From Patescibacteria group bacterium (GTDB taxonomy: Bacteria > Patescibacteriota > Patescibacteriia > Patescibacteriales > UBA12465), in NCBI GenBank assembly GCA_049317985.1, contig JBMOHF010000001.1, positions 25,605 through 89,604 of the forward strand: a DNA stretch of 64,000 nt. Direction: 5' to 3'. A program made the translations under genes and the position numbers. The notes below the pieces were generated by a model, which made no database searches, was not told the DNA's origin, and worked only from the letters and a program-made list of their open reading frames with translations. Below, piece by piece: positions 9,235 to 19,483 of the stretch. Each line of letters opens with the position of its first letter. Position 1 is the stretch's first letter.

Positions 9235-10728
9235 TTAGTTGATATTATTGCTGTTAAATTGAATTATCTCCCCCATATCATAGAAATATAAAAGTTGCGG
9301 AGTGACCGTTATGACGTTGTTTTTGCTGTAACCCATTTGAAGAAAAACGCTATCAGATGCGAATGGCCTTTTTTTCCCGTTGGCAATTATATAAATTGTC
9401 GGTGAGCTTGGAGAAGTTAGCAAACTGCCGTTATCAAACAATTCTTGGTCTTTTGTTTTGTAACGCGCTAATTCATTGCTTGTAACCTTAGTTATTTTTC
9501 GATCTTTAAACTTATAGGTCATAATTGCTTTATCAAGAATCGGAAACTTTTCTCCATTTTCCACATAAAATCGCGCACCAGTTTTATTGTCTTGCAAAAT
9601 AGCGCCAGTGGCATAAGTACTGGTCACAGTTATTTCTGTTCCAGTCTGATAATTACTTAATTCATTGGTACTAGCAGGAATTATTTCATCTTTATTGAAG
9701 CCAATTTTCTTGAAAGTTGCAGTGTTAGCAATTAAACGTTTTTCGTTATCCACTAGTAAAAAAATATTGTTGCTCGAATCACTAACTAGAGAATAATTTG
9801 GAAATTTAATATCAGCTCCTTTCTCGAAGTTATCAAGTATTTCGGTACTAGTTTTAACTATTTGGTTTTTATTAAATCGAGAAACAAAGGAGCCCCAATT
9901 TAAAAATTGTCTTTTTTGACCGTTTTCAATTAACCAAATTACCTTGTCTCCTTCTGCCTGAAGGATCGTGCTGTCCGGATAAAAAGTTTTTACTGTGGGA
10001 AAATATTTTTTCCAAAGTTTAAAAAAATTATAATTTCCATTAAATACATGCGGAGTGTAGTTGTAAAGTGCGGCAGTCGCCTTATTCTGTGGAGTAACAC
10101 TCATTGTCGCCGTACTAATTGTGCCATAAGGATTAGTGAAAGTGTAAGTTTGGCCAGCCTTATAGGAATACCGGTATTGCTCATTTATATAAGCAAGAAA
10201 TTGCAGGGAAGCGCTATTGATTTGTTTTCCAAATCCTTTGTAATAAGGATTACAAGCGATGCTATCGGGGCAACCATAACCAGCCGCCCAATCCAAGCTG
10301 CTCTGGCTTGGGTTAGCTTTTTCGATTAAACCTTGTTCTTTTTGAAGAAGAACTAAAATTAATTTCGGGCTGACCGTTGTGATTATTCTACATCTTGCCT
10401 TTTTGTCTGCTTCAGTTGGTGAATCACCAAGATCAATTCCGCTGCAATCATAATTTTGATGAGTGGCATCATAAATAATTTCTGCCGCTGATTTATCGAT
10501 GGTACCGTGGGAATTGATTGTTCGGTAATTGGCTAGGTAGCTATTTTTTTTATTCAAAAAATTTTGAATATCAGTCAGGCCCATACTGTTGTAATCTAGG
10601 AGTTCAGAGTCACTAATAATATTTTCTGGGTTAAATTCCGCGTCAATTTCTATTGCTTTTGCAGTCGGCGAACAAATAAAAAATGCTAATAACGCCAAAA
10701 AAATTGCTGACCGATATTTCTTCAACAT
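9235..10728 (-). CDS. Secreted hypothetical protein with four C-terminal ~55-aa repeats
   Basis: Signal peptide ending PTAKA, and a Cys-containing N-domain (LLQKEQGLI, DWAAGYGCPD). Four repeats have the type x(I/Y)x(L/I)xxNGxKRx(F/I). Confidence 0.6.
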   Translation of the reverse strand: MLKKYRSAIFLALLAFFICSPTAKAIEIDAEFNPENIISDSELLDYNSMGLTDIQNFLNKKNSYLANYRTINSHGTIDKSAAEIIYDATHQNYDCSGIDLGDSPTEADKKARCRIITTVSPKLILVLLQKEQGLIEKANPSQSSLDWAAGYGCPDSIACNPYYKGFGKQINSASLQFLAYINEQYRYSYKAGQTYTFTNPYGTISTATMSVTPQNKATAALYNYTPHVFNGNYNFFKLWKKYFPTVKTFYPDSTILQAEGDKVIWLIENGQKRQFLNWGSFVSRFNKNQIVKTSTEILDNFEKGADIKFPNYSLVSDSSNNIFLLVDNEKRLIANTATFKKIGFNKDEIIPASTNELSNYQTGTEITVTSTYATGAILQDNKTGARFYVENGEKFPILDKAIMTYKFKDRKITKVTSNELARYKTKDQELFDNGSLLTSPSSPTIYIIANGKKRPFASDSVFLQMGYSKNNVITVTPQLLYFYDMGEIIQFNSNNIN

Positions 10729-10834: not shown

Positions 10835-13468
10835 TTAGATCTTTTTCATTACGACTTCGTTTTTCAGCCCAAGGTCAATGCTAATTTTGTCACCTTCTTG
10901 AATTTTTCCTTCGATTATTTCCATTGCTAATTCATCAAGAATCATGGTTTGGATGAGACGTTTCAGAGGTCTTGCACCAAAGGTTGGATCGTAGCCTTTC
11001 TCCGCTAATTGTTTTTTTACTTTTTGGCCAAGCTTGAGGACAATATTTTTATTTTTTAGACGTTTTTCAACTTTAATCAGTTCAAGTTCAACAATCTTTC
11101 CTAGAGATTCTTTGCTCAAATTTTTGAAAACAACAATTTCATCAATCCGATTCAAAAATTCTAATTTAAAATTGTCTCTAAGAATTTTGTCGATTTTTTC
11201 TTTCATTTCATCACCTTTTTCTTTTTCTTGATTTTTTTGGTCGCGATCACCGAAGCCAATCGAATATTGGCGAATCACTTCATTGCCTAGATTGGAGGTC
11301 ATAATTATTACCGTGTTTTTGAAGCTAACCGTTCTTCCTTTTGAATCAGTAAGTCGGCCATCATCGAGGATTTGCAGAAGCATATTAAACATTTCTGGAT
11401 GAGCCTTCTCGATTTCATCAAACAAAATAACACTATATGGTTTTCTTCGAATTTTTTCAGTTAACTGTCCGCCTTCTTCGTGTCCGACGTAACCTGGTGG
11501 GGAACCAATTAATTTCGCCACGCTGTGTTTTTCCATGAATTCACTCATATCTAAGCGGATTAAGGAATTTTCGTCATTGAATATGAAACGCGCCAGAGCT
11601 TTAGCGAGCTCGGTTTTTCCAACACCAGTTGGGCCAACAAACAAAAAAGAGCCGATTGGTTTTTTTTCTTCGTTAATACCAGCCCGACTACGTCGAACAG
11701 CATTTGAGACAGCGGTGATTGCTTCATCTTGCCCGATTACTTCTTTTTTTAATTCCTCTTCAGTGTGCACTAATTTTTGCAAATCACTTTGAAGCATTTT
11801 TTGAACAGGGATACCAGTCCATCTCGCAACAACTTTAGCGATGTCTTCTTCATCCACTTCTTCTTTGAGAATGCGTTGTCCGTTTTTTTGTATTTTAATG
11901 AGATCTTCTTGAAATTTATGGATCGCCGCTTCTTTTTCTGGGATGATCCCGTATTTTATTTTTGCTACTTCAGTCAGGTCTTCACCGCGACGTTCGATAA
12001 TTTCTGCCTTTGCTTTTAGTTCATCAATCTCTTTTTTATTAATTCTAATTTTATCAATAATATTTTTTTCATTTTGCCAATGAAGCTCTAGTTGCGAACT
12101 TTTTTCTTTTAATTCGCTGATATTTTTATTGATGCCGCGCAATTTTGCTGATTTTGGTTCAGTGCTAATCAGTCCGGCACGAGTAATCTCTAGTCTTTTT
12201 ATCTCTCTTTTTAGACGGTCTAACTCTTCGGGCATTGAATCAATTTCCATGCGCAGGGCAGAGGTTGCTTCGTCGATCAAGTCAACGGCTTTGTCTGGCA
12301 GAAATCTGTCGGCAATATACCGGCTGGACAATTTGACGGCTGCGATTAAGGCATTGTCCGTAATTCTCACGCCGTGATGAACTTCGTATTTTTCTTTAAT
12401 TCCTCTAAGAATAGCGATTGCATCCTCGAGACTAGGTTCATTAACCATGATCGGTTGGAATCTTCTTTCCAGGGCGGCATCTCGTTCAATATATTTTTGA
12501 TACTCTTTAGTGGTGGTTGCACCAATAGTTCTTAATTCGCCGCGTGCTAAAACTGGTTTTAACATATTGCTGGCATCAATCGAACCCTCGCTAGCACCAG
12601 CGCCAATAATTGTATGAAGTTCATCGATAAATAGAATAATTTGGCCATTACTTTGGACCTCTTTCAAAACTGCTTTTAATCGATCTTCAAATTCACCGCG
12701 AAATTTTGCACCTGCAACCAGGGCTCCGAGGTCGAGGGTTAACACCTGTTTATTTTTTAAATTTTCTGGGACATCACCCGAAACTATTCTTTGCGCTAAG
12801 CCTTCAACGATTGCCGTTTTTCCGGTTCCTGGCTCGCCGATTAGGACGGGATTATTTTTAGTACGACGAAGCAGAACCTGCATGATTCTTCTTATTTCCT
12901 CGTCACGTCCAATTACGGGGTCAAGTTTTTCTTGTTTGGCAAGTTCAGTTAAGTTGGTTGTAAACTTTTCTAAGACCCGGTATTTATTTTCTGGGTCAGG
13001 ATCAGAAATGGTTTGGTTTCCGCGCAGTTCTTTAATAATCGGGGAAACACTTTCATAGGAAACTTTGAAATTTGATAAAACTGCCTGAGCCTGATTTTCG
13101 ACGCCAATCAAAGCAAGAAGAATATGCTCAGTCGAAATAAATTCATCATTCATTAAGTCAGCTTCTTTTTTTGCTCGCTCCAAAACAACTGCCGTCTCGC
13201 CATTTCCTTGAACGGTATTAACTTGCCCGTTTAGATTGGATTTAGTTTCTATCCTCGGTAATTTTTTTATTTCATTCTCGGTGTAGTCGGCGACTTCTTC
13301 GGGATTAATTCGGAGTTTTTCCAGAATTGTCTTCACCAAGCTTTCCTCCTGGTCAAGAAGAGCGAGCAAAAGATGTAGAGATTCAATATGCGGTTGGCCG
13401 TTCTCGTTGGCAATCACTTGAGCGCTAATAATTGCTTCCTGTGACTTGGTTGTAAATTTATTAAACAT
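10835..13468 (-). CDS. clpB: ClpB-type Hsp100 chaperone (full-length M-domain) carrying a ClpC-like IGF tripeptide loop
   Basis: D1 has GEPGTGKT and ILFIDELH. The ~125-aa coiled-coil M-domain aligns to the ClpB middle domain. D2 has GPTGVGKTE and [10 protein letters not shown]. The loop reads [20 protein letters not shown]. Confidence 0.9.
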
Positions 13469-13526: not shown

Positions 13527-13555
13527 CAATATACCGCAGCAATGAGCCGCTGTCA
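13527..13555 (-). promoter_or_regulatory. Sigma70-type clpB promoter
   Basis: Minus strand reads TTGACA-17 nt-TATATT, immediately followed by CIRCE. Confidence 0.7.
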
Positions 13556-13592
13556 ACACTTTAAAATTATGTTATAATTCATTTATAATAAT

Positions 13593-13958
13593 ATGACTAA
13601 TAAAAATCCTTTCCTTGCTTTTGTCTCTGCCGCTCTCGAAGTCGGCTTTGTGGTAATTTATTTCCCTTTTTGGTGGTATTCCGTTGGTTTTATTCGTTTT
13701 TTACGTTCGCTTGGTCGGTTTCTAAAAGAAAAACAAGAGAGTCTTGCTTTATTTGTTTGGATAAAAAATATTTTTCGGCCAATGTATGGTCAAGAAGATT
13801 TCGCTGGTCGCTTGATCAGTTTCTTTATGAGAGTAATTCAGATTATTTTTAGAGGCATTGCTTTGATTTTTTTTCTTGCCCTAACAATAACTTTGGCTCT
13901 CGGTTGGCTCGCTTTGTTGCCCCTCGTTCTCGTTTTTATTGTTTTGCAATTACTCTAA
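13593..13958 (+). CDS. Small polytopic membrane protein (3-4 helices)
   Basis: 121 aa and very hydrophobic. Its stop lies 3 nt before the start of the Clp-like gene, so it is probably co-transcribed. Confidence 0.6.
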   Translation: MTNKNPFLAFVSAALEVGFVVIYFPFWWYSVGFIRFLRSLGRFLKEKQESLALFVWIKNIFRPMYGQEDFAGRLISFFMRVIQIIFRGIALIFFLALTITLALGWLALLPLVLVFIVLQLL

Positions 13959-13961
13959 TTT

Positions 13962-16637
13962 ATGAATAATCAAGAAAATAATCAAGAAACTGAAGAAAAT
14001 TGGTTTGGTGGTCGGCCGCTCGTTTTTCGTTGTGTGCCACAATTAGGGCTAATTGCTGTGAAGCGCTTAAAAAACTCGCTTCTTTCTTTTATCGATATTA
14101 TTTTTTGGTTAATTTTTGTTTCCGGTTTTTTTGCTCTTGCTCTTTGGGTCTATCAAGAGGGGGCGCCTTTTGTTGAAAAGCCTGAAAGTATTATCTTTTT
14201 TTGGAAAGAACAGCATCCTTTACTGTTATGTTTTTCTTTCGCTTTAATGGCGGGGTTATTTATTATTTATCGAAACAGTGAGAAAAAAGCTTCTCGCAAG
14301 AAAATTAATTACAACTGGTTCAAGAAAGAATTACCACGCGAAGATCTTTTGGCGCCGTTTTTTAATGGCAACCCAAAGGATTTAGAATCAAGTAAGGGGT
14401 TTAGCGATGAAAGCATGTCATGCCTTGATGACGCTTATCTTTTAGTAAGAAAATTAAAACAAGCAGAAATTCGCCCAATTCACTTATTTCGAGTTTTATT
14501 AAAAAAGAAAAAAATTCAGGCAATTTTTGTGCGCTTAAATATTAACGCCAAGGATCTTCTGCAAAAAATCGATCGACATGCAATGGAAGGAGAAGCGGTT
14601 TCTGGAAAAATTATTATTTCTCCCGCACTTTTGATTGCTTTGACTTCGGCTTTTCAAAACGCTGCTCTTGGTCATCGTGTCGCCGTGGAAATTTTAGATT
14701 TTGTGGCGCTGTTGCCTGAGAATGATCCAGTATTGTCAGAAATTTTATTTGATTTAGAAGTTCCGAAAGAAAAATTAGAGAATACGGTTGCTTGGTTTCA
14801 GATTAATGATCGTTTACGAGAAAATTATCTTCGCTTTCGCACCTTGGCTCGTTTCAAGCCAGATAGTGGTATGAACCGATCATATACGGCAATTGCGACA
14901 CCAACTTTAAATAATTTTTCTCACGATTTAACGCAAGCTGCCAAGTTTGGTTATTTGGAAATGTGTGTGGCGCGTGAAGAAGAATTTTCTCAGATTTTTG
15001 AAAATATTGGTGGCGGCCGAAATGGTGTTCTGTTGGTGGGACAGCCAGGAGTGGGAAAAAAAATGATGCTCGAAGGGCTAGCTCAATTAATGGTTCAAGA
15101 AGAAGTCCCAGATTTTTTACGAGATAAGCGCTTGGTTGAGCTTGATATTTCTCGCTTGACTGCCGGTGCTTCAGCGGCGGAAGCTGAAGAGCGATTGCTA
15201 AGTTGCATATACGAAGCAGCTTCTTCTGGAAATATTATTTTAGCAATCCAAAATATTGAAAATATTATCAGTCAAAATACTGGAGAACAGGGTGGCTTGG
15301 ATTTATCAGGAGTTTTAGCCGAAGCTCTTTCTCGTGGGCAAACAATTTGTCTGGCGACGATTAGTTCGGAAAATTATCAAGATCGCCTTGAGGGGAAAAC
15401 CTTGGATCAAGCCATGGTTAAAATAAAAATTAACGAACCAGATGAGAACCGGGCTATTTTGATTTTAGAGAGTAAGGTTGCTTTTTTGGAGCAAAAATAT
15501 CATATCTATTTTCTTTATGAGGCGATCGAAGAAGCGGTCTTAATGTCCACAAAATATCAACACGATTCTTTCTTGCCAGCCAAAGCCATTAATCTTTTGC
15601 AAGACGCAGCAGTTATTTCTGCTAAAAATCTTCGGCGCGGGTCTTCTTCTTTTTGTGGCCAGGAGGAAGTGGCGGCAGCAATCAGTGCTTTGACGGGCGT
15701 GCCGGCTAGCAAAGTTACCGAAAGCGAAGGCGAGAAGTTATTAAATTTAGAAGCAGAAATTCACCATCGCTTGATTGGGCAGGAGGAAGCTGTCTCAATG
15801 GTCGCCAATAGTTTAAGGAGGGCTCGCTTGGAGCTCAAAGATCATAACCGACCAATGGCGAGCTTCTTGTTTCTTGGTCCGACCGGTGTTGGTAAAACAG
15901 AATTAGCAAAAGCAGTATCTGAAGTTTATTTTGGTGGCGAAGAATTTATGATTCGCTTAGATATGAGTGAATATCAGCATCCAGACAGTGTAAACAAAAT
16001 GATTGGCGACGAAAACGGCGGGGTTGGTTATCTAACTGAAGCAGTTCGCAAAAAACCTTTTTCTCTTGTTCTTTTTGATGAAGTGGAAAAAGCTCATCCA
16101 GATATTTTAAATCTCTTCTTGCAGTTGATGGACGATGGTCGATTAACAGACGGACAGGGGCGTACCATTAATTTTAAAGATTCAATCGTCATCGCTACTT
16201 CTAACATTGGCGCACTATATATTCAGGAGCAACTCAGAGCGCAAACCCCGATCGAGGATATCAAAAACGGTCTTATTAATGGGCAGTTAAATCAATACAT
16301 GCGGCCGGAGCTAGTCAACCGTTTTGATGGTATTATTGTGTTTAAGCCACTTAATGAGGATAATCTTTTTCAGATCTCGAAATTGTTATTAGGGAAGATC
16401 AAGAATCAGCTAATGGAAAAGGGAATTGGTTTTAGTGTTGATAAAAGTGGTGCGCTTAAGTTAGCAAAAGATGGTTATGATCCAAAATTTGGGGCGCGAC
16501 CTCTTCGGCGTCTATTACAGGAGAGGATTGAAGATCGAATTGCTTCATTGATTTTATCAAATAATTTGAAGCGCCGCGACACTGTAGTGGTTAATGAAGA
16601 TGGAGAGATAAGCGTTGAAAAGGGGAGAAGTCTTTAA
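13962..16637 (+). CDS. Membrane-anchored ClpA/ClpC-like AAA+ ATPase with degenerate D1 Walker B
   Basis: Two N-terminal hydrophobic helices are followed by Clp_N-like repeats. D1 has Walker A GQPGVGKK, but the Walker B position reads ILAIQNIE instead of hhhhDE. D2 is intact ([20 protein letters not shown]). No M-domain and no IGF/LGF loop are seen. Confidence 0.8.
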   Translation: MNNQENNQETEENWFGGRPLVFRCVPQLGLIAVKRLKNSLLSFIDIIFWLIFVSGFFALALWVYQEGAPFVEKPESIIFFWKEQHPLLLCFSFALMAGLFIIYRNSEKKASRKKINYNWFKKELPREDLLAPFFNGNPKDLESSKGFSDESMSCLDDAYLLVRKLKQAEIRPIHLFRVLLKKKKIQAIFVRLNINAKDLLQKIDRHAMEGEAVSGKIIISPALLIALTSAFQNAALGHRVAVEILDFVALLPENDPVLSEILFDLEVPKEKLENTVAWFQINDRLRENYLRFRTLARFKPDSGMNRSYTAIATPTLNNFSHDLTQAAKFGYLEMCVAREEEFSQIFENIGGGRNGVLLVGQPGVGKKMMLEGLAQLMVQEEVPDFLRDKRLVELDISRLTAGASAAEAEERLLSCIYEAASSGNIILAIQNIENIISQNTGEQGGLDLSGVLAEALSRGQTICLATISSENYQDRLEGKTLDQAMVKIKINEPDENRAILILESKVAFLEQKYHIYFLYEAIEEAVLMSTKYQHDSFLPAKAINLLQDAAVISAKNLRRGSSSFCGQEEVAAAISALTGVPASKVTESEGEKLLNLEAEIHHRLIGQEEAVSMVANSLRRARLELKDHNRPMASFLFLGPTGVGKTELAKAVSEVYFGGEEFMIRLDMSEYQHPDSVNKMIGDENGGVGYLTEAVRKKPFSLVLFDEVEKAHPDILNLFLQLMDDGRLTDGQGRTINFKDSIVIATSNIGALYIQEQLRAQTPIEDIKNGLINGQLNQYMRPELVNRFDGIIVFKPLNEDNLFQISKLLLGKIKNQLMEKGIGFSVDKSGALKLAKDGYDPKFGARPLRRLLQERIEDRIASLILSNNLKRRDTVVVNEDGEISVEKGRSL

Positions 16638-16640
16638 AAA

Positions 16641-16670
16641 AACAAAAAAAGCCCCGAATCTTCAGGGCTT
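16641..16670 (-). terminator. Rho-independent terminator of 16684-17046
   Basis: Stem AAGCCC/GGGCTT. The minus-strand transcript is followed by a long U-run. Confidence 0.65.
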
Positions 16671-16683
16671 TATCCTTGTTAAA

Positions 16684-17046
16684 CTACAAGGTTATTTTTT
16701 TCTTTTTCTTTTTTTGTGAATTCTTTTCTTTTTGTCTTTTTTCAAGAATTTTTAAAATTTCCCCCAACTCTTTTTCTTCCTCTTCTAGGCCGCTGGTGAT
16801 TACTTTCTGTATTTCTTCTTGGTGTTGTTGAGCAGACAAGTTGTCTAGTTGTAATTTGTTAGCATTTAATCTTTTTAAACTTTCCCCTTTTTCTAAATAT
16901 CGGTTTTTAATAAAAGGAATTAAATTTCCGATATCTTGCGGTGTTAGTAATGTTAAAACCGCTTCACCGAGGAAATTTTGTTGGTACGAGCTGATTAGAA
17001 TGCCTAGATGCTTTTCCTTCTTTATTGTTTCTTGTTTTTTTGCCAT
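16684..17046 (-). CDS. Hypothetical protein with poly-lysine C-terminus
   Basis: 120-aa ORF ending in NSQKKKKKKITL. No family recognised. Confidence 0.45.
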   Translation of the reverse strand: MAKKQETIKKEKHLGILISSYQQNFLGEAVLTLLTPQDIGNLIPFIKNRYLEKGESLKRLNANKLQLDNLSAQQHQEEIQKVITSGLEEEEKELGEILKILEKRQKEKNSQKKKKKKITL

Positions 17047-17122
17047 CTTCGCCTTTTTTGTTTTATTTGTAATTATTGGTATTATTAAATAGCTTGTCTA
17101 ATTGTACATATATTATCTAAAG

Positions 17123-19483
17123 ATGTCAACTGTAACCTATCTAATATTTTTTATTCTCGCCTTTGCTTTAAGCGCCGTCTCGGTGCCTGTTTTGCGTTTT
17201 TTGGCGTTTCGTTACGGTATTCTTGACTCTCCCGGTGAAAGAAAAATTCACCATCAATCGATGCCTTTGATGGGTGGGGTGGCGATATTTTTTAGTTTTT
17301 TTCTGGTCTTATTTCTCAGTCGTTCTCATCTTTTCCCGAGCGCTCTTTCAGCGCATCATTGGTTGGGATTCTTTTTTGGGGCATTTTTTTTGATAATCGG
17401 CGGTGTTTTAGATGATAAGTATAATCTTAAGCCAAAATGGCAGATTATTTTTCCGTTGTTGGCAGTAGCCGCAGTCTTACTCGGCGGCATCGAAATTCCG
17501 AAAATTAGTAATCCCTTCGGAGGACTAGTGTATTTAAATTGGGGTCTACTTTCTGGCACCTTAATCACCTTTTGGTTATTAGGAATGATGTATACCACCA
17601 AGCTGTTAGATGGCGTAGACGGGCTTGTTTCTGGTCTTGGCTTAATCGGTTCTTTGATAATTTTTTTGTTTACCATCACTACCCGCTATTATCAGCCTGA
17701 CATCGCTTGGGCTGCTTGGATTTTTGCGGGGGCAGTAGCCGGTTTCCTCGTATTTAATTGGCATCCCGCTTCCATTTTCTTGGGAGAAGGAGGTTCATTA
17801 TTTGTCGGTTATGTTTTGGGAGTCTTAGCAATTATTTCTGGCGGAAAGATTGCGATTGCCTTGTTAATTATGGGCGTGCCAATCCTTGATGTTGCTTGGA
17901 CAATTATTCGTCGCTTAGCCAAAAAGAAAAACCCTTTTCGATTTGCCGACAAAAACCATCTCCACCACCGTCTTCTTGCCGCTGGACTTAATCAAAAACA
18001 AACCGTTTTAATTTTCTATTTATTATCTTTTTGTTTTGGTATTAGTGGCTTATTTTTGCAAAGCCGCGGGAAAACCATTGCTTTGATTCTGGTTTTTTTG
18101 TTGATGTTGTTGTTGGTTGCTCTCTTATCCCGTTTAAAAAAAGCCAAGCCAAAACTACTTTTGCATGTTTGTTGTGCACCTTGTGCCGCTTACATTACGC
18201 ACGCAAAACTAATGAGTCGCTTTAATGTTTCTTGGTATTTTTATAATTCTAATATTTACTCTCGGGAAGAATATCAAAAACGATTAGCTTCAGTCAAAGC
18301 TTTTTGTCGAAAATATGGGATAAAGTTAATCACTGAAGCTTATGACCACCAAGGGTTCTTGTCGTCAATTATTGGACGAGAAAGTGACCTAGAACGAGGG
18401 GGTCGTTGTTTAATCTGTTACCTCGATCGTTTAAAAAAGACCGCAGAGTTAGCTTCCCATAAAAAATATCACTATTTTTCCACCAGTTTACTAACCAGCC
18501 CCTACAAGAGGACCGCTGAAATATCTGAAATGTGTTTTGATTTAGCGAAGCAATTTAATATAAAGTATCTTGATGAAGATTTTCAGATTGATAATGGATA
18601 TCGACTATCTCAAGAGTTTGCAAAGAAAGAAGGCTACTATCGGCAGAAATTTTGTGGCTGTGAATTTTCAAAAAAAAGTTCAGTGGTTGTCGCTTTGGTA
18701 TTTGCGGTTTTAATTAGTTTTATTCATTCTGCAAAAGTAAGTGCGGCCGACGAATCTTTTCTTCAAGAAAGTTCTTCTAGTTCAGAAGCAGTATTAGTTC
18801 AAAATACTGTTTTAGATTCCGATAATGATGGACTAAGTGACCAAGACGAAATTAAGTACTTAAGTGATGAAAATAATTCCGACACCGATAGTGATGGCTA
18901 TCTGGATGGCGTCGAAATAAAAAATAATTATTCGCCTTTATTTGCTAATAAGAAATTATCGCAGGTTGATTCCGACAAGGATGGTTTAAGCGATTATTTG
19001 GAGATAGCTTTTAAGACGAATCTCGGAAAAAGCGATACCGATGGCGATGGCATTTCTGACTTCAAAGAGATCGACTCTGGTTTTGATCCGTTATCTCCCG
19101 TAAAAGATCAAAGATTACCTCTGCGTGTAGAAATTACCCTTAAAACTCAAAGATTATCTTTTTTGGTAGGTGGTATTAAATGGAAAGAATTTGTGGTTTC
19201 AAGTGGAAAGGCGAGCACGCCAACGCCAAAAGGGAAATTTAAAATTACCAATAAATCAGTAAAGGCTTGGTCAAAATCTTTTGGTCTCTGGATGCCTTAT
19301 TGGATGGGCTTGGGTGATGGGAAAGTTGGACTTCACGAATTACCAGTCTGGCCAAATGGTTACCGAGAGGGGCTTAATCATCTTGGAACGCCAGTCTCGC
19401 ATGGTTGTGTGCGTCTAGGTCTTAATGATGCCAAATATCTTTATGAACGCTTATCAGTTGGGACTGATGTGCTAATTAAATAA
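17123..19483 (+). CDS. Four-module fusion: MraY/WecA-like polyprenyl-phosphate sugar-1-P transferase, QueH (DUF208), TM helix with TSP3 repeats, and YkuD L,D-transpeptidase
   Basis: GT4 motifs VLDDKYNL, LLDGVDGL, FLGEGGS, VPILDVAWTIIRR and NHLHHRL. QueH pattern LLLHVCCAPC, GGRCLICY, TSLLTSPYK and YRQKFCGCEFS. Four DxDxDGxxDxxE repeats. YkuD motif GTPVSHGCVRL. The ATG at 17123 is preferred to the TTG at 17102. Confidence 0.8.
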   Translation: MSTVTYLIFFILAFALSAVSVPVLRFLAFRYGILDSPGERKIHHQSMPLMGGVAIFFSFFLVLFLSRSHLFPSALSAHHWLGFFFGAFFLIIGGVLDDKYNLKPKWQIIFPLLAVAAVLLGGIEIPKISNPFGGLVYLNWGLLSGTLITFWLLGMMYTTKLLDGVDGLVSGLGLIGSLIIFLFTITTRYYQPDIAWAAWIFAGAVAGFLVFNWHPASIFLGEGGSLFVGYVLGVLAIISGGKIAIALLIMGVPILDVAWTIIRRLAKKKNPFRFADKNHLHHRLLAAGLNQKQTVLIFYLLSFCFGISGLFLQSRGKTIALILVFLLMLLLVALLSRLKKAKPKLLLHVCCAPCAAYITHAKLMSRFNVSWYFYNSNIYSREEYQKRLASVKAFCRKYGIKLITEAYDHQGFLSSIIGRESDLERGGRCLICYLDRLKKTAELASHKKYHYFSTSLLTSPYKRTAEISEMCFDLAKQFNIKYLDEDFQIDNGYRLSQEFAKKEGYYRQKFCGCEFSKKSSVVVALVFAVLISFIHSAKVSAADESFLQESSSSSEAVLVQNTVLDSDNDGLSDQDEIKYLSDENNSDTDSDGYLDGVEIKNNYSPLFANKKLSQVDSDKDGLSDYLEIAFKTNLGKSDTDGDGISDFKEIDSGFDPLSPVKDQRLPLRVEITLKTQRLSFLVGGIKWKEFVVSSGKASTPTPKGKFKITNKSVKAWSKSFGLWMPYWMGLGDGKVGLHELPVWPNGYREGLNHLGTPVSHGCVRLGLNDAKYLYERLSVGTDVLIK

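Follow-up and report, generated by a model that had tools for sequence, protein, structure and literature searches.

Hsp100 proteins are textbook soluble threading motors. Elsewhere among AAA+ proteins, the D2 module of NSF forms a ring that binds nucleotide without hydrolyzing it and keeps the hexamer together, and Bcs1, an AAA protein anchored through its N-terminus, moves its client by large conformational changes and not by threading. According to a review of the field, Clp/Hsp100 enzymes depend critically on aromatic pore loops for processive unfolding, and such loops are missing from the Torsins, AAA+ proteins related to the Clp/Hsp100 D2 module that have an N-terminal hydrophobic segment and the membrane-spanning partners LAP1 and LULL1 (PMC5425593). 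Of the anchored AAA+ proteins, YME1L is reported to have an anchor that drives hexamerization (PMC5095350), and Msp1 is reported to extract membrane proteins (PMC12793716). Here, we analyzed a stretch of 64,000 nucleotides (nt) from a Patescibacteria group bacterium (GenBank assembly GCA_049317985.1, contig JBMOHF010000001.1, positions 25,605 to 89,604 of the forward strand), hereafter the window, in which an Hsp100 ATPase with a predicted N-terminal transmembrane hairpin is encoded directly behind a small membrane protein of 121 amino acids (aa). The original prediction, made from the sequence of the window, could not assign this pair to any described system; likewise, none turned up in the literature that we searched, which contained no description of a membrane-anchored bacterial Hsp100.

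The two genes are located as follows:

13593–13958, plus strand: small partner gene, 121 aa (open reading frame (ORF) call)
13962–16637, plus strand: membrane-anchored Hsp100 ATPase gene, 891 aa (ORF, domain and fold matches)

The TAA stop of the small ORF is followed by 3 nt (TTT) and then by the ATG of the ATPase, and clpB (10835–13468, minus strand) lies divergently upstream of the pair; both ORFs, the 3-nt spacing and the divergent clpB are exactly as had been predicted. Because the D2 module of the ATPase matches PF07724 (AAA_2) at 5.6e-52 and hundreds of homologues exist for both proteins, the two ORFs are far above chance. By fold and domain content, the ATPase belongs to the Clp/Hsp100 superfamily and is closest to ClpC. 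For the comparisons given below, we used two alignments, one of 120 homologues from the database and one of 75 complete orthologues taken from genomes at species level, together with an AlphaFold2 (AF2) model of the ATPase obtained from a 113-sequence alignment (predicted local distance difference test (pLDDT) 82.8, predicted TM-score (pTM) 0.72). In this model, helices at residues 28–72, 74–82 and 86–111 are followed by an eight-helix N-domain and then by D1 and D2, and the nearest solved folds are ClpC hexamer subunits, with a target-normalized TM-score of up to 0.84 over D1–D2.

The membrane anchor occupies the N-terminal end of the protein:

14067–14279, plus strand (aa 36–106): N-terminal transmembrane hairpin (hydropathy, AF2, charges)

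Kyte-Doolittle hydropathy gave hydrophobic segments at aa 36–65 and 84–105, and a helical hairpin was modeled by AF2 at residues 28–111, consistent with a first transmembrane helix (TM1) at ∼40–63, an external loop at 64–85 bearing a conserved P...FFW motif and a second helix (TM2) at ∼86–104. Two hydrophobic segments are present in 109 of the 120 homologues, the remaining 11 having a weaker second segment. On both sides of the hairpin the sequence is basic (mean net charge +3.4 and +4.2), and the loop that joins the two helices is neutral to acidic (−0.2); given these positive-inside flanks, an N-in/C-in topology with the AAA+ body in the cytoplasm is predicted. Membrane tethering, as originally suggested, is therefore borne out by a transmembrane hairpin that is conserved, with positive-inside flanks, in 120 of 120 homologues. 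A cleaved signal peptide was considered and rejected, given the conserved ∼35-aa cytoplasmic segment ahead of TM1 and the two helices.

As a separate observation on this hairpin, an Asp is found within TM2 (aa 98, nt 14253–14255; consensus SLWFDLF) in 68 of 76 species sequences, the window protein having Gly. A membrane-embedded acidic residue at this place suggests a polar or ionic contact within the bilayer.

The partner protein is short and is itself predicted to form a hairpin, with its best-conserved element between the two helices:

13746–13799, plus strand (aa 52–69): conserved, predicted cytoplasmic loop of the small protein, LFVWIKNIFRPMYGQEDF (alignment; between AF2 helices)

The small protein has 127 close homologues, all of ∼120 aa and none with a Pfam domain, and an exhaustive profile search yielded 589 clusters at 50% identity, nearly all of them stand-alone. 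No match was obtained in Pfam (with the single sequence or with 76 members), NCBIfam or PADLOC, and the best PDB fold match was not significant (E ∼2). AF2 predicts a single long hairpin (pLDDT 93.2) made of helices 6–51 and 70–120, whose outer halves are hydrophobic and whose inner halves are basic (+2.3, invariant +3.0). The earlier description of this protein as polytopic is thus to be corrected, as it is predicted to be one two-helix hairpin and is not obviously polytopic. Within the loop, N59, P63 and M64 are invariant and W56, K58, I60, F61, Y65 and D69 nearly so, with KNIFRPMYGQ as its nearly invariant core. The hairpin would thus cross the membrane and extend a stalk of ∼20 residues into the cytoplasm, with the conserved loop at the end of this stalk. 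Column-pair mutual information, calculated for the small protein against the ATPase N-terminus and including a specific test of the TM2 Asp against charged partner residues, mainly reflected phylogeny and pointed to no interpretable contact.

The distribution of the pair was determined with a family-specific N-terminal profile, which, when one genome per species was scanned, found the ATPase in 172 genomes, nearly all from Patescibacteria (Falkowbacteria, Uhrbacteria). Synteny was counted at 80 loci out of these 172 genomes, 3 of which begin at a contig edge. At all 77 loci having upstream sequence, the small gene immediately precedes the ATPase gene in the same orientation, mostly separated from it by 1–16 nt or overlapping it. 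Divergent small-protein matches led to seven distinct distant loci (Uhrbacteria and other Patescibacteria, 31–64% GC), and at each of these the small gene is followed immediately by an 856–925-aa Hsp100 with a hydrophobic N-terminus, frequently with a 4-nt overlap, although the upstream neighbors are here tgt, mraZ-rsmH-ftsL or hrcA-grpE-dnaK-dnaJ and not clpB. Moreover, in one database ORF (P0288, N-terminal profile match 3.6e-11), the small protein is merged with the ATPase hairpin. Since the arrangement is kept at seven of seven distant loci with changed neighbors and also occurs as a merged ORF, the pairing is more than inherited gene order, and the two genes are strictly inherited together and in many loci coupled in translation. 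A functional pairing with the upstream small gene, as put forward in the original prediction, is accordingly in agreement with the co-oriented arrangement seen throughout the relatives surveyed. The ATPase ORF is intact at 75 of the 80 species loci, the others being cut by contig ends, and public annotation lists it as 'ClpC' or 'AAA family ATPase'. Many metagenome-assembled genome records containing the locus are titled Gammaproteobacteria, Bacillota or Saccharimonadales (L002, L003, L006, L032, L058 and others), titles which look like placeholders or misassignments.

The two AAA+ modules and their motifs are placed as follows:

14967–15641, plus strand (aa 336–560): D1 module, a predicted pseudo-ATPase (motif alignments)
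15039–15062, plus strand: D1 Walker A, GQPGVGKK
15237–15260, plus strand: D1 degenerate Walker B, ILAIQNIE
15762–16601, plus strand (aa 601–880): D2 AAA+ module and D2-small domain (AAA_2, ClpB_D2-small)
15876–15899, plus strand: D2 Walker A, GPTGVGKT
16005–16031, plus strand (aa 682–690): truncated D2 pore loop, GDENGGVGY (alignments, the divergent relative L087, AF2)
16065–16088, plus strand: D2 Walker B, LVLFDEVE

Walker A of D1 lies where it had already been put, and the degenerate Walker B falls within the approximate range given for it. D1 produces weak scores in domain search; the ATPase matches AAA_lid_9 (PF17871) at 3e-09, and D1 is 34% identical to D1 of ClpB and ClpC. In the BLASTP alignment to the neighboring ClpB and in the HMMER alignment to Staphylococcus aureus ClpC, ILAIQN stands opposite ILFIDE with zero shift. 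A shifted, intact Walker B was looked for by alignment and is absent, so that the proposed loss of the Walker B Asp-Glu from D1 is confirmed, with Gln-Asn in its place. In Walker A of the window protein, the Lys is retained and the Mg-binding Ser/Thr is replaced by Lys. Across the 76 species sequences, the Walker A Lys position is occupied by Lys in 72 and by Arg in 4 cases, the catalytic Glu is exchanged for Asn in 75, and Arg is found at neither of the two Arg-finger positions in any of them (ALERRF reads TLDQAM in the window protein). Furthermore, the D1 pore loop of the window protein, AGAS-AAEAEE, is devoid of an aromatic residue and carries a 1-residue deletion; the family reads (D)ASQAEE at this place compared to KFRGEFE in the neighboring ClpB, and no aromatic was found at the D1 pore-loop position among ∼200 sequences.

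Two states of D1 are encountered in the family, one combining GK[S/T] with Asp-Asn and one, devoid of both Mg ligands, combining GK[K/R/N] with [Q/N/S/A]-Asn. The two losses are strongly coupled (counts 117, 11, 6 and 48; odds ratio 85, without phylogenetic correction), and the window D1 (Lys, Gln) represents the doubly degenerate state. Because D1 is, despite its dead motifs, conserved almost like D2 (mean majority-residue frequency 0.79 vs 0.88), it is best explained as a maintained pseudo-ATPase under purifying selection, and is predicted to be catalytically dead family-wide.

D2 additionally matches PF10431 (ClpB_D2-small) at 8.5e-21. Its catalytic residues, K645/T646, D706/E707, sensor-1 N748, Arg finger R787 and sensor-2 R846, are intact in 74–75 of the 76 species sequences (R787 in 74), and D2 is predicted to be catalytically complete. 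With D1 apparently dead across the family and D2 fully intact, the view of this protein as a single-motor machine holds up. The designation of D2 as canonical, in turn, applies to its catalytic residues only; the shortening of its pore loop, like the missing pore aromatic of D1, had gone unnoticed. This loop is 5 residues shorter than that of ClpB and ClpC and has lost the canonical GYVG tyrosine. L087 retains the full D2 loop, GAPPGYSGASEGGYLTE, with both tyrosines, and the corresponding AF2 helix of the window protein begins at residue 690; for these reasons, Tyr690 is assigned to the second, helix-capping Tyr before LTE, and the possibility that it acts as a shifted pore tyrosine was rejected. 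In the Falkowbacteria and Uhrbacteria clades, the alignments thus indicate a deletion of the D2 loop tip including the gripping Tyr. Since the pore aromatics of both D1 and D2 are gone and such loops have been described as critical (PMC5425593), processive threading is doubtful in the clade of the window protein. The label 'unfoldase or extractor' given in the original prediction is therefore unsupported as it was stated, the protein having no D1 pore aromatic and a D2 loop that is 5 residues short.

Between the hairpin and D1, two further elements were delineated:

14406–14855, plus strand (aa 149–298): Clp_N-type N-domain of eight helices (TIGR02639, family profile, AF2)
14856–14966, plus strand (aa 299–335): linker KPxxGMNRxYTAIATPTLxxFSHDLT, the best-conserved stretch of the N-terminal half (invariant alignment columns)

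The ClpA model TIGR02639 aligns in one stretch over residues 152–877. The Clp_N-like character ascribed to the N-terminus is supported by the family profile, which matches solved Clp N-domains (HSP101, 1e-7; ClpC, 2e-4), although the Pfam Clp_N model is not significant with the window sequence alone. The linker (mean conservation 0.82) is predicted to be disordered at residues 299–310 (pLDDT <50), and its TPTL..DLT part corresponds, in the ClpC alignment, to the N-domain/D1 junction of ClpC. The D1–D2 linker comprises ∼20 aa compared to ∼150 in ClpB, which shows that the protein has no ClpB-type M-domain, as had been claimed; the M-domain is missing in all members. Similarly, in comparison with S. 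aureus ClpC and the neighboring ClpB, every member has lost the tip of the ClpP-docking loop, which is located between sensor-1 of D2 and the Arg finger. The accompanying statement that the protein has no IGF/LGF docking tripeptide is correct with respect to this loop, but not literally, as an IGF exists at aa 822–824; this tripeptide is not conserved and belongs to a beta-strand of the D2-small domain.

The regulatory elements around the pair and its most persistent further neighbor are the following:

13550–13578, plus strand: promoter-like site for the two-gene operon (CTGTCA-17-TATAAT, −10 extended by TG), arranged back-to-back with that of clpB
16648–16691, strand not specified: terminator-like hairpins directly 3' of the ATPase stop, closing the two-gene operon in the window genome
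13497–13523, strand not specified: perfect controlling inverted repeat of chaperone expression (CIRCE, the HrcA operator), TTAGCACTC-N9-GAGTGCTAA, an element of the clpB promoter
17102–19483, plus strand: WecA/TagO-like GT4 polyprenyl-phosphate sugar-phosphate transferase, a 793-aa fusion, the most persistent further neighbor

The promoter-like site of the pair ends 14 nt 5' of the ATG of the small gene, and an extended −10 (TGnTAnAAT; here 13570–13578) is present 10–15 nt 5' of the small-gene start in all lineages examined, including the distant loci L081–L090. With a −10 element at only 10–15 nt from the start codon, the mRNA would have a very short leader or almost none. The pair is predicted to be transcribed from its own promoter and was not placed in the HrcA regulon. 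The CIRCE (full sequence TTAGCACTCGTAATGCTAGAGTGCTAA) is the single one in the 64-kb window. It follows, 4 nt downstream, the −10 of the near-consensus clpB promoter TTGACA-17-TATATT (minus strand, 13556–13528) and is conserved at 53 of 77 related loci, while the 10 loci without adjacent clpB have no CIRCE in front of the pair. On these grounds, heat-shock co-regulation of the pair was rejected, and the link to clpB and heat shock implied by the original prediction is weak, the CIRCE belonging to clpB.

The neighboring ClpB has a full M-domain and, in addition, carries QYSIGFGD... inserted after D2 sensor-1 and ahead of the Arg finger. The insertion site is the position of the ClpP-docking IGF/IGL loop in ClpX, ClpA and ClpC, and IGF is present in 59 of 59 orthologues; this ClpB may dock to ClpP, as a naturally occurring disaggregase of the BAP type. 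A 497-aa protein (9235–10728, minus strand) with an N-terminal signal-like segment, for which no Pfam or NCBIfam match was obtained, adjoins clpB in 53 related loci. On the other side of the pair, a Lys/Glu-rich 120-aa ORF (16684–17046, minus strand) is located between the ATPase terminator and the GT4 gene; it gave no domain match, has homologues at 2 of 80 related loci and may be lineage-specific or not a gene. Twenty further ORFs of the 64-kb window are housekeeping genes, with no clpP, clpX, ftsH, lon or hrcA among them.

The GT4 gene is found downstream on the same strand at 62 of 66 loci, often within 60 nt, as well as at 5 of the 7 distant loci, and in Uhrbacteria-type loci its start sometimes overlaps the ATPase stop. 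In the window, the GT4 ORF, which scores under the NCBIfam cutoffs, also encodes QueH, bacterial TSP3 repeats and an L,D-transpeptidase domain of the YkuD type; the GT4–QueH fusion recurs at 44 of 62 related loci, 6 of those with YkuD. This fusion is an odd mix of envelope domains and a tRNA-modification domain, the cytoplasmic epoxyqueuosine reductase QueH. Queuosine genes flank the pair in both lineages, with tgt upstream in Uhrbacteria-type loci and queH fused downstream in Falkowbacteria-type loci, which is probably an old gene-order block.

Our favored model, which we regard as an even call, is that the pair forms an obligate membrane complex that acts on membrane or envelope clients as a ClpP-independent, non-processive remodeling or pulling machine. 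In this complex, the small hairpin membrane protein would join a ClpC-derived Hsp100 anchored via its N-terminal transmembrane hairpin. Within the Hsp100-type ring, D1 would be a static assembly layer, as is NSF D2, and D2 the sole motor. Anchoring may help ring assembly, as reported for YME1L (PMC5095350), and, because the anchor is N-terminal, the entry face formed by the N-domain and D1 would be turned to the membrane. The basic two-helix stalk of the partner could then lift its invariant loop to the N-domain/D1 layer and contact it there. Such a machine would operate without a protease and without DnaK coupling via an M-domain, and the D2 ATP cycle would drive short-range remodeling of, or pulling on, a membrane-embedded client or the partner in a Torsin-like or Bcs1-like manner; this is preferred over processive unfolding because both pore-1 loops are without a gripping aromatic in this clade. 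Given the persistent WecA/TagO-like neighbor and the context of the division and cell wall (dcw) cluster, envelope biogenesis or quality control of polytopic envelope enzymes would be the most likely arena. In a more specific and clearly more tentative version, the pair would be, in principle, a bacterial counterpart of Torsin or Bcs1, namely a non-threading Hsp100 ring held together by the locked D1 ring and by anchoring, in which the D2 ATP cycle moves the protein's own transmembrane hairpins and a ring of small hairpin partners and thereby performs mechanical work in or across the bilayer; the biogenesis of lipid-linked glycans or of the cell wall, jointly with the conserved WecA/TagO-like neighbor, would be one example. 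If true, this would be both the first membrane-integral Hsp100 and the first Hsp100 acting as a membrane mechanotransducer.

Several points weigh against the remodeling model. The transmembrane calls are based on hydropathy, charge bias and AF2. A conserved Leu is left in the shortened D2 loop in 65 of 76 sequences and might still grip, and, as the intermediate relative L087 keeps the D2 pore tyrosine, the ancestral machine was probably a threader. Both features speak for a classical extractor or unfoldase, in which the hexamer threads membrane or membrane-proximal polypeptides from D1 to D2, powered by D2 and with cytoplasmic release, much like Msp1 or an FtsH ring without the protease. The N-terminal anchor that sets the entry face at the membrane, the complete D2 catalytic set and the retained Clp_N substrate/adaptor domain would also fit this mode of action; nevertheless, we consider it doubtful, as none of ∼200 sequences has a D1 pore aromatic, the D2 loop tip is deleted in both the Falkowbacteria and Uhrbacteria clades, the window protein included, and these loops are described as critical for processive unfolding (PMC5425593).

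The genomic neighborhood raises a different objection. Background synteny is high, unrelated neighbors being kept in ∼50 loci and queuosine genes flanking the pair, so that the GT4 adjacency may be inherited rather than functional. In another reading, the pair would be a dedicated ATP-driven accessory of the adjacent GT4 or of the division and cell-wall machinery, which assembles, activates or recycles a component of lipid-linked glycan synthesis instead of serving general quality control. The co-directional GT4 gene and its overlap with the ATPase stop in Uhrbacteria-type loci, the presence of mraZ-rsmH-ftsL upstream in several distant loci and the location of L087 among glycan-synthesis genes are all in favor of such a role. 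We nonetheless judge it unlikely, since two of the seven distant loci have no adjacent GT4, terminator-like hairpins and an opposite-strand ORF separate the pair from GT4 in the window, the frequent GT4–QueH fusion illustrates that adjacency need not mean shared function, and precedent is lacking. A partnership with ClpP or another peptidase through non-canonical docking, giving a membrane Clp protease that replaces or complements FtsH, would be in keeping with descent from ClpC-like proteins and with membrane AAA+ machines usually being proteases (FtsH and YME1L). It is, however, very improbable: the docking loop is deleted in all members, the neighboring ClpB with its invariant IGF loop is the more plausible docker, and a peptidase gene is linked to the pair in no locus examined. 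Finally, the several degenerate catalytic motifs and generic AAA matches to PADLOC models could be taken as signs of a decaying, non-functional paralogue or of a mobile defense gene. This we find scarcely credible and, from the conservation of the family, largely refuted, as every domain is highly conserved, D1 included, the ORF is intact at nearly all loci, and the genes hold a stable chromosomal place among housekeeping genes. A defense system was moreover rejected in its own right, as the PADLOC matches of the ATPase (DolB, PDC-M37B, TRIP13, IetA) are limited to its generic D2 AAA core and the partner has none. Overall, we favor the remodeling machine over the extractor, followed by the GT4 accessory, the ClpP partner and, last, the relic or defense gene.

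A membrane-integral Hsp100 with an obligate small subunit, a pseudo-ATPase D1 under selection and lost gripping loops would widen the known roles of this fold, and the labels 'ClpC' and 'AAA family ATPase' conceal what is likely a distinct machine. The family also offers an evolutionary series for the rewiring of AAA+ double rings, from L087-type proteins with a D2 tyrosine and proteins with Mg ligands in D1 to the doubly degenerate state. The conservation of a 3-kb operon in the very small genomes of Patescibacteria implies an important function, and both proteins are tractable in size for heterologous expression and cryo-electron microscopy.

How the locus relates to known systems depends on whether mechanism or sequence is compared. 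The likeness to NSF D2 and Bcs1 is a mechanistic analogy only, as these belong to other AAA+ clades and have no specific sequence relationship to the ATPase. With FtsH, YME1L and Msp1 it shares an N-terminal anchor that sets the pore entry at the membrane, whereas those proteins are single-ring, classic-clade AAA proteins with aromatic pore loops and, in the case of FtsH and YME1L, a protease domain; the present protein is a double-ring type of Hsp100 that has neither a protease nor pore aromatics. FtsH in particular combines two N-terminal transmembrane helices with one AAA module and an M41 zinc protease; the transmembrane helices are found here too, but they are joined to two AAA modules of the Hsp100 type, and a peptidase domain is absent. 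The Torsins resemble the present system in their working principle only, that of a membrane-associated, Hsp100-D2-related ATPase without aromatic pore loops and with a membrane partner. D2 has its own Arg finger here (R787), while Torsin depends for this residue on a membrane cofactor whose AAA fold is degenerate; the partner described here, a hairpin of 121 aa, has no AAA fold, the ATPase has two AAA modules and Clp_N, and close kinship is not shown.

Among the Clp/Hsp100 proteins themselves, ClpB/Hsp104 has in common with the ATPase a D2-small domain and a D2 that is 40% identical in the neighboring ClpB. It differs in that the protein described here is anchored, has lost the pore tyrosines and has no M-domain, and scores 532 bits against a TIGR03346 cutoff of 1232; because the M-domain is missing, no coupling to Hsp70 by this route is expected. 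ClpA shares the layout of N-domain, D1 and D2 without an M-domain, but the ATPase reaches 442 bits compared to the TIGR02639 cutoff of 993, has no IGL loop and is membrane-anchored, and D1 is active in ClpA and seemingly dead here. ClpC remains the best match in sequence and fold (445 bits to S. aureus ClpC) and shares Clp_N, the TPTLD..DLT junction motif, the D1 and D2 layout and the D2-small domain. From ClpC, the ATPase departs by the absence of the M-domain and docking loop, by a D1 without the Walker B Glu, Arg fingers and pore tyrosine, by a truncated D2 pore loop, and by the presence of a transmembrane hairpin and an obligate small membrane partner.

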